This document shows, piece by piece, positions 10,277 through 10,591 of a DNA stretch of 11,238 nucleotides. The position numbers and the translations under genes were made by a program. This stretch comes from Acidobacteriota bacterium. Its GTDB lineage: Bacteria; Acidobacteriota; Thermoanaerobaculia; Multivoradales; UBA5704. Position 1 is the stretch's first letter. Every line of letters starts with the position of its first letter. The DNA is taken from the NCBI GenBank assembly GCA_040005235.1, contig JBDTZG010000111.1:1-11238 (forward strand), given 5' to 3'. Under the pieces are notes generated by a model that was not told the origin of the DNA, ran no database searches, and saw nothing but the letters and a program-made list of their open reading frames with translations.

Positions 10277-10293
10277 GGGAGGAAGGTAAGAGA

Positions 10294-10334
10294 GGGCTTG
10301 AGGATTTTCCAGGGGAGTGGCCGCCCTCAAGCCC
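10294..10334. terminator. Inverted repeat GGGCTTGAGG-N21-CCTCAAGCCC between convergent genes, candidate terminator
   Basis: Perfect 10-bp stem (10294-10303 / 10325-10334), 8 bp after the small-peptide stop. On the minus strand it is followed by pyrimidine-rich TCTCTTACCTTCC. The loop is large and there is no clean U-tract. Confidence 0.5.
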
Positions 10335-10342
10335 GTACTGCC

Positions 10343-10519
10343 TTAGCAGGGATACCTATTGCTCTGGCATTCAATGGGGCCACTAGGGCACCCGTTTGTG
10401 CATGGGATGGTATTGCATGCCAAGGCCGTCGCACCGCCTGCCGCCTTTCGTAGCGTTCCTAGTTCGAGGCGCTTCACCGTCTCCATTGCCAATACCAGCT
10501 TCTTGGTCTTTTTCTTCAT
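10343..10519 (-). CDS. Putative RiPP (lanthipeptide-like) precursor peptide, 58 aa, with double-glycine leader and Cys/Ser/Thr-rich core
   Basis: Hand translation: MKKKTKKLVLAMETVKRLELGTLRKAAGG|ATALACNTIPCTNGCPSGPIECQSNRYPC*. SD AAGGAGG lies 4 nt before the ATG. The ORF fills the intergenic gap without overlapping neighbouring genes and is too short for the provided ORF track. Confidence 0.85.
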   Translation of the reverse strand: MKKKTKKLVLAMETVKRLELGTLRKAAGGATALACNTIPCTNGCPSGPIECQSNRYPC

Positions 10520-10523
10520 GAGT

Positions 10524-10530
10524 CCTCCTT
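10524..10530 (-). promoter_or_regulatory. Strong Shine-Dalgarno AAGGAGG of the precursor gene
   Basis: Minus strand reads ACAAGGAGGACTC-ATG. Confidence 0.8.
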
Positions 10531-10591
10531 GTAGGACTGAGAGTCTACCGTAGGTCGGAATCCAGCCCTCGTGTTACGAGGTACACCTCGA

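Follow-up and report, generated by a model that had tools for sequence, protein, structure and literature searches.

The contig analysed here (JBDTZG010000111.1, C29 in our numbering; 11,238 bp, taken entire and called the window below) carries, between a regulator gene and a serine hydrolase gene, a 58-codon open reading frame (ORF) that probably encodes a class I lanthipeptide precursor (LanA) with a Bacteroidetes-type leader, one of 39 such precursors dispersed through the genome and presumably matured by unlinked LanB and LanC enzymes. The source genome, labelled G000 (other G-numbers denote related genomes), is that of an uncultured soil member of Thermoanaerobaculia (Acidobacteriota) and comprises 6.22 Mb in 140 contigs, with 66% G+C and a completeness rating of 100%. 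An initial annotation, made from the letters of the window, had proposed that this small gene belongs to a dispersed family of precursors with a conserved leader and hypervariable cores. The proposal is supported by the 39 paralogs, by the small number of enzymes and by the absence of the gene at the same place in two congeners. Indeed, our genome-wide search for small ORFs, in which many paralogs and few synthetases had been expected, set 39 paralogs with diverse cores against one LanB, three LanC and one PCAT.

The putative precursor gene and its family

The window ORF scored E 5.8e-14 against the leader profile in a six-frame translation of G000 and forms the first row of the 39-member alignment (A1). 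Its leader satisfies the motif LxLxKx5L with a Gly-Gly end (L8-V-L10-A-M12-x5-L18, G28-G29), after which cleavage is predicted. In the core, a Ser or Thr lies three to five residues upstream of every Cys (T31/C35, T37/C40, T41/C44, S46/C51 and S53/C58), and all ten positions are retained in a 58-aa ortholog from the congener G003, with which the window peptide shares 84.5% identity. The pN/pS ratio of this ortholog pair is 0.26; taken separately, the leader gives 0.24 and the core 0.26. A Pfam scan of the window peptide gave no match, and no Nif11 or NHLP-type leader was found among the Pfam/NCBIfam matches of this peptide or of the 39 paralogs. A match of the window peptide to NapG (15.5 bits, against a cut-off of 269) was rejected as noise arising from Cys composition.

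The family was collected by a regex scan and then by a leader profile iterated over the 107,216 stop-to-stop frames of G000. At convergence the profile had 39 hits at E<0.05; the removal of C8:110627, which has no start codon, and the addition of a clear member at E 0.16 left the number at 39. Four false positives of the regex scan (C20:5154, C67:17045, C98:29040 and C103:7965, the last being nadC) were discarded. The paralogs are spread over 29 contigs: C18 has six, C35 has three, C8, C111 and C138 have two apiece, and another 24 contigs have a single copy. They share a leader (MKK..KLxLxRETxxxL..GG) followed by unrelated cores rich in Cys, Ser and Thr. When the leaders were aligned, T14 was invariant and L8, L10 and E13 were at least 90% conserved, while the cores were unalignable, with a mean column identity of 22%. 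The model NF038153 ('class I lanthipeptide') was matched by 26/39 paralogs at E<=0.1, and its curated cut-off (22 bits) was passed by 4/39.

The cores nonetheless obey a common rule of spacing. A Ser or Thr occurs two to six residues upstream of 206 of the 212 core Cys, far above what was obtained in 1000 shuffles (mean 146.6, sd 7.1, maximum 170), and Ser plus Thr equal or outnumber Cys in all 38 cores that contain Cys. Cys makes up 16.6% of core residues, Thr 14.2% and Ser 9.1%, with Lys/Arg at 3%.

An all-against-all BLASTN comparison of the regions flanking the 39 genes (250 nt on the upstream side, 200 nt on the downstream side) gave no match at E<=1e-3, and within the genes short matches of 15-23 nt occurred in seven pairs only. 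Since the flanks share no DNA, the copies are old: they do not stem from recent duplication, and they have no common repeat, transposon or MITE border. One member, C24:59259-59426, has a normal leader with an early stop directly after it, and the profile continues through two TAG codons; it is probably a decaying copy. Seven of the 39 precursors (on C22, C11, C90, C29, C53, C101 and C115) lie within 2 kb of a contig end, a marginal excess given that about 9% of the genome is that close to one.

Candidate maturation enzymes in the genome and in its relatives

G000 encodes LanB and LanC, both apparently intact (Table 1). The LanB is full length, with PF04738 over 1-648/649 and PF14028 over 1-253/255, and its relatives of solved structure are MibB (5ehk, 2.3e-50) and NisB (4wd9, 3.6e-24). 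All three LanC, in frames of 467-502 aa, retain the HGxxG, WCxG and CHG motifs. No match to PF13575, the LanM domain, was found in G000, a search that is weak alone because its control stayed silent in 14/14 reference genomes. The initial annotation had likened the system to prochlorosins processed by a LanM of the ProcM kind; this part of the idea has to be given up, as the machinery is class I LanB/LanC with no LanM domain match and the leader is of the Bacteroidetes type LxLxKx5L..GG, not Nif11.

Most of the precursors stand apart from these enzymes. Four of the 39 lie within 4 kb of a LanC and none lies near LanB or PCAT, leaving 35/39, the window peptide among them, near no LanB, LanC or PCAT. 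The four near a LanC depart from the picture drawn in the initial annotation. It had also been stated that the window contains no dehydratase, cyclase or PCAT, in agreement with our genome-wide LanB, LanC and C39 matches, all of which are on other contigs. For the 33 precursors located neither in the window nor at the LanC loci, we scanned the 121 ORFs lying no more than 3 kb away, ORFs of <90 aa or with GC3 <0.78 being left out; they include no LanB, LanC or C39, and no Pfam family recurs. Isolated neighbours of precursors are one radical SAM gene, one PF02441 flavoprotein and one MacB/FtsX permease.

A complex prediction for LanB residues 1-780 with the window precursor gave a score of 0.55, the best of three controls reaching 0.00, with at least 34% of contacts agreeing between runs and a partner pLDDT of at least 40. 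This counts as weak support for the pairing. The mark used is reached by 116/157 solved complexes and 2/215 mismatched pairs; with a score of <=0.60 it is reached by 18/157 of the former and by both passing mismatches. A similar complex, NisB-NisA, is already solved, so that the pass may merely echo that structure.

The third LanC (C8:30051-34189 with its neighbour) lies directly downstream of a gene for a 950-aa M1-family metallopeptidase with HEAT repeats and has no precursor nearby. G001, G002, G003 and G007 each have a LanC frame of this length as well. The peptidase could serve in leader trimming.

The same leader family occurs beside LanC and LanB in more distant relatives. Compact LanA-LanC-LanB rows were found in G024:C127 (at 12273, 12875 and 14269), G021:C11 (at 33455, 33947 and 35307), G021:C7 (with four precursors) and G019:C13. 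Proximity to both enzymes is thus seen in members from G019, G021 and G024, while in G000 four of the 39 paralogs adjoin LanC only and the window peptide adjoins neither. In a set of 77 LanB loci taken from public records (Acidobacteriota, Myxococcota, Actinomycetota and other phyla), 29 have a family member within 6 kb. At two Cystobacter fuscus LanB loci (L101 and L130), the same leader type precedes a very different core that has few Cys, contains DR repeats and is dominated by Asp, Arg and His. A LanC was found within 6 kb at 0/7 of the loci whose LanB is at least 75% identical, as against 47/70 for the other LanB loci. The closest LanB records (85-94% identity) are titled as metagenome-assembled genomes of Thermoanaerobaculia or Holophagales.

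The family was present in 19/31 related genomes, all 19 of which have LanB and LanC; of the 12 genomes without it, four have a LanB match and five a LanC match. Because the genomes are kin and not independent, this co-occurrence is a pattern rather than a test. Within the genus, all eight genomes have exactly one LanB, two to four LanC and 18-56 precursors. In a class-wide sample of genomes at least 90% complete, the family was found in 12/121, and 30 or more copies occurred only in the window's taxonomic family and in G019. In G018, an assembly of 30 contigs, precursors lie hundreds of kb from each other and from LanB, and the scattering is therefore no artefact of fragmented assembly.

The precursor repertoire differs even between close relatives: 14 of the 39 G000 precursors have a G003 ortholog at 80% identity or more, a comparison that covered 30 of 33 G003 hits, so that up to three orthologs could be missed. 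Synteny on one flank or both is kept by twelve of these 14; another lacks any flank match, and the remaining one, that of the window, is relocated.

Table 1. Positions of the window features (C29) and of the maturation and export genes on other contigs of G000.
Feature	Position	Strand	Remarks
Precursor gene (LanA-like)	10343..10519	minus	58 codons + stop; MKKKTKKLVLAMETVKRLELGTLRKAAGG then ATALACNTIPCTNGCPSGPIECQSNRYPC
Predicted leader, residues 1-29	10433..10519	minus	L8-x-L10-x-M12-x5-L18, G28-G29 end
Predicted core, residues 30-58	10346..10432	minus	5 Cys + 5 Ser/Thr, read from sequence
Shine-Dalgarno AAGGAGG	10524..10530	minus	ends 4 nt ahead of ATG at 10519
-10-like box TAGACT	10542..10547	minus	kept in G003 ortholog
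Terminator-like hairpin 3' of stop codon	10294..10334	minus	11-bp stem GGGCUUGAGGG / CCCUCAAGCCC, no T run
Conserved cassette module (hairpin, ORF, Shine-Dalgarno, -10-like box, ~25 nt upstream)	10290..10571	minus	81% identical to G003:C53:8827-9103
Segment absent from the same junction in two congeners	10277..10603	.	alignment A2; includes the hydrolase's last codons
NrtR-type (Nudix-related) regulator	9191..10276	plus	PF21906 NrtR_WHD, E 8.6e-20; convergent with precursor
Beta-lactamase-family serine hydrolase, 3' part	10592..11238	minus	PF00144; frame runs on into contig C103
LanB	C66:135688-139065		1125 aa; single copy; between gcvP and ABC solute-uptake operon
LanC 1	C35:41358-42776		immediately follows precursors at 40922 and 41257; a third lies 3.7 kb further on
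LanC 2	C115:1814-3247		directly after precursor at 3174-3353
LanC 3	C8:30051-31340		behind M1-peptidase/HEAT gene; 124 kb from two C8 precursors
PCAT (C39)	C66:91766-94153		single copy; adjoins HlyD-like gene

The cassette and its surroundings

The window gene and its signals form a module that has changed place between two species. When we searched seven other genomes of the genus at the DNA level for the interval between the NrtR-type regulator gene and the hydrolase gene, we found that it measures 315 bp in G000, 85 bp of unrelated spacer in G003 and 24 bp in G001. In G003 the flanking genes are well conserved, NrtR being 92% and the hydrolase 89% identical. The initial annotation had looked to relatives for presence or absence of the cassette, and it is indeed missing at this junction in G003 and G001. 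The hydrolase ends in FEEPIE before its stop codon in G000 and in FEER before the stop in G003 and G001; from this difference, the inserted segment extends into the last codons of the hydrolase. The gap between the two genes is about 1.45 kb in G006:C9 and about 3.6 kb in G007:C521, where part of the NrtR 3' end is present a second time, and in G002 the two genes are on separate contigs.

The G003 copy of the cassette was found between a sulfatase-like and a thioredoxin-like gene, both named from translation only, and the orthologous site in G000 (C86, ~6420-6607) has no cassette. The two copies are homologous from the hairpin to a point about 25 nt beyond TAGACT in the upstream direction. By inspection, neither a target-site duplication nor a terminal inverted repeat was seen at the cassette borders.

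A different kind of partial similarity was found in the precursors of G002:C111 and G007:C101, where the -10-like box (TAGAAT or TAGACT), the Shine-Dalgarno site and the first 15 codons (MKKKTKKLVLAKETV) match the window gene at 81-89% nucleotide identity. Beyond codon 15 these precursors are unrelated to it. Such a mosaic 5' module could have arisen by recombination at the leader, or the gene could be under constraint that varies greatly along its length.

The arrangement in the window is reproduced by contigs from two sequencing runs, which span NrtR, cassette and hydrolase without difference, though the two runs are not independent because both may be sources of the assembly. Run X3 leaves 10082-10577 uncovered, and one 158-nt contig from it, which ends at 10608 with ten loose letters, is too short to be of use. 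At its far end, C29 overlaps the start of C103 by 55 identical nt that are found nowhere else, the hydrolase frame crosses the junction, and the contig of one run reaches 6.8 kb past 11238. A dedicated maturase cluster just beyond the window would have contradicted the initial annotation, but inspection of the first 12 kb of C103, which hold the rest of the hydrolase, nadB, nadC and a sigma-54 activator, revealed no maturase.

The signals attributed to the 58-codon ORF by the initial annotation, namely a Shine-Dalgarno site of its own, a TAGACT box and a downstream stem, are all present, the stem counting 11 bp. A Shine-Dalgarno-like site was found at -4 to -16 in 33/39 paralogs. The box, which from its sequence is a putative promoter element, is less general, TAGA[AC]T occurring upstream of 4/39 paralogs against a shuffle mean of 0.55. 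The hairpin region folds, over 76 nt, at -26 kcal/mol (z -2.08; 1/200 shuffles folds equally well), its stem is retained in the G003 copy, and the downstream fold has a z below -2 in 19/39 paralogs. The count of A/T-ending codons was likewise reproduced, at 20/58 (34%) for the window ORF compared with 42/422 in glgC and 37/245 in lipB; paralogs range from 11 to 43%.

Both neighbours had been recognized beforehand, and we can now describe the regulator as NrtR-type and the serine hydrolase as belonging to the beta-lactamase family. The regulator scored 72 bits against NF050029, below the cut-off of 400. The hydrolase gene shares the strand of the precursor and is located upstream of it, 72 nt away. 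The N-terminal part of the regulator ORF contains, in frame, a dispersed palindromic repeat (9278-9395, plus strand; about 117 nt) that supplies 39 extra residues. It has 16 further copies in G000 at 81-95% identity; a 2-kb query returned 32-39 matches in total in G002, G003 and G007, mostly to this repeat. It is present in the NrtR gene of G003 and absent from those of G001, G002, G004, G006 and G007.

Elsewhere in the window, a HicB-like antitoxin gene (5319-5540, PF15919, E 2.2e-7) lies directly upstream of an ORF with a HicA-toxin domain (5095-5568 frame, PF07927, E 1.3e-19), the pair (5095-5540, minus strand) being located between an AraC-type membrane regulator and glgA. A 764-aa FtsX-type permease with an ABC ATPase (858-4651, minus strand) is encoded at a distance of about 6 kb from the precursor. 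The C35 LanC likewise adjoins a MacB/FtsX permease and the C18:55173 precursor has one nearby, but such permeases may simply be abundant in G000.

Alternatives, proposed pathway and comparison with known systems

Several observations weigh against the lanthipeptide interpretation. Position 12 of the leader is Met in the window peptide, where most paralogs have K/R and the G003 ortholog has Lys, and the match of the window peptide to NF038153 (lant_leader_L1a) reached 12.6 bits (E 0.12), short of the curated cut-off of 22. In the interval 10100-10800, a generic sigma-70 scan detected no promoter and a scan for T-run terminators detected none, the hairpin having no T run; the 72-nt gap would also permit read-through transcription from the hydrolase, and no RNA runs containing the window stretch were listed. 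On the enzyme side, none of the three LanC is singled out, the 5-kb C115 contig that carries one of them has no detectable overlap with other contigs, and an assembly in 140 contigs leaves some precursor-enzyme distances unfixed. In addition, a Gly-Gly leader serves primarily for export and alone is no proof of modification.

This last point bears on the alternative that survives best, an unmodified or only disulfide-bonded double-glycine-leader peptide (a signal, or a toxin resembling class II bacteriocins) that would be cleaved and exported by PCAT with LanB and LanC uninvolved. The leader does end in Gly-Gly, the genome has a PCAT, and neither the window nor the 12 kb that follow contain a modifying enzyme. 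However, five Cys are an odd number for a peptide with disulfides only, and an unmodified peptide accounts poorly for a Ser or Thr three to five residues before each Cys, for the ten positions kept in the ortholog and for the family-wide spacing far above shuffles. The occurrence of the leader family beside LanC and LanB in kin and the co-occurrence in 19/19 genomes also speak against it, and we regard this explanation as unlikely.

It is less probable still that the window gene is a stranded relic, a true family member that moved off from its enzymes and is now silent or unprocessed. Its orphan position, the atypical Met at the K/R leader position and the low GC3 would fit such a fate, as would the premature stops of paralog C24:59259, but a pN/pS of about 0.26 in both leader and core is not what is expected of a relic, and the Shine-Dalgarno site, -10-like box and hairpin are conserved across two species at two different loci.

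Slighter again is the chance that the peptide is the substrate of another RiPP maturase, e.g. a radical-SAM thioether-forming enzyme of the kind that serves the TIGR04149-like GG-leader family. TIGR04149 was weakly matched by 4/39 paralogs (best E 0.0031), and the C58 paralog has a radical SAM gene at a distance of about 2 kb. That gene, however, adjoins a type III PKS gene, with no SPASM domain reported at E<=1e-8, and radical SAM genes are not recurrent among the 121 neighbouring ORFs. SPASM-domain matches number only three in the genome (C4, C82:1433 and C56), none near a precursor, the C82 paralog being 79.9 kb away; a radical SAM/SPASM maturase linked to a precursor was thus not found in G000. 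A chance ORF in an intergenic spacer, which its shortness and lack of a Pfam match might suggest, hardly deserves consideration, being already refuted by the leader profile score, the 39-member family, the Shine-Dalgarno site and the conserved 58-aa ortholog.

The window peptide is best read as a divergent member of the L1a-type leader family, and from the genomics we infer that the orphan precursors are served in trans. In the pathway that we propose for this class I lanthipeptide precursor, the unit of about 280 bp would be transcribed on its own, from -10-like box and Shine-Dalgarno site to hairpin. The single unlinked LanB would bind the shared leader and dehydrate the five core Ser/Thr through glutamyl-tRNA-dependent glutamylation and elimination, in keeping with the Glu-tRNA dependence described for class I LanB (PMC9993889). 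One of the three LanC would then add each Cys to the dehydro residue three to five positions upstream, giving up to five consecutive, non-overlapping thioether rings, and the single PCAT with its HlyD-like partner would cut after Gly-Gly and export the peptide.

On a wider scale, the balance tips slightly towards the view that soil Thermoanaerobaculia maintain a combinatorial class I lanthipeptide library, in which one LanB and two to four LanC, unlinked, mature 18-56 cores per genome encoded on cassettes of about 280 bp that undergo fast turnover, change of locus and core swapping behind a 5' module. If so, this would be a class I counterpart of the prochlorosins, with a substrate tolerance of LanB/LanC at a scale not yet described, and it would show the two-enzyme LanB/LanC route serving dozens of unrelated cores. 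About 40 leader-matched substrates per genome would offer a ready panel for studying or engineering LanB/LanC promiscuity, and some 90% of these precursors would escape mining that is confined to seven genes around LanC. With its cassettes, its sites that are empty in one genome and occupied in another, and its mosaic 5' module, the family would also make a tractable case of RiPP core diversification and movement. Peptide libraries of such kind have so far been described mainly from marine cyanobacteria, and searches of the main text of papers revealed neither a dispersed library of class I precursors nor class I lanthipeptides from Thermoanaerobaculia. A Nature 2026 paper on corals treats class III and class II clusters of other Acidobacteriota.

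The closest parallel in organization is that of the prochlorosins (ProcA/ProcM of Prochlorococcus and Synechococcus), which have many precursors with a conserved leader ending in Gly-Gly and hypervariable cores, often far from the synthetase (PMC7268733, PMC10783134). In G000 too, many scattered precursors with a Gly-Gly leader end face a small enzyme set, and the repertoire differs strongly from that of a close relative, as in prochlorosins, with 14/39 shared with G003. Unlike prochlorosins, which rely on a bifunctional class II LanM, the system described here has separate LanB and LanC, with three cyclases per single dehydratase; its leader is not Nif11/NHLP, and phylum and habitat differ. 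It works like the prochlorosin system without belonging to it, since both LanM and a Nif11 leader are lacking.

In its components, the system resembles the Bacteroidetes-type class I lanthipeptides (Walker family I 17, pinensins; PedA15 of Pedobacter lusitanus; NF038153), with which it shares the leader motif, the Gly-Gly end, the C39 protease and LanB/LanC (PMC7268733, PMC12328550). Walker et al. 2020 described class I LanAs with an LxLxKx5L leader, often with a GG end and a C39 protease (PMC7268733), and the word 'Acidobacteria' does not occur in the main text of that paper. These systems are described there as clusters and were found within seven genes of LanC (PMC7268733), in contrast to G000, where 35/39 precursors are outside LanC neighbourhoods and LanB is unlinked from LanC.

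With nisin-type systems (NisA, NisB, NisC, NisT and NisP) the resemblance lies in homologous LanB/LanC and in the same ring logic of Ser/Thr before Cys. In nisin-type systems the leader is of the FNLD type, the genes form a clustered operon with a LanP subtilisin, and precursors are few or single, whereas here we found a GG leader end, a PCAT, dozens of precursors and unclustered genes.

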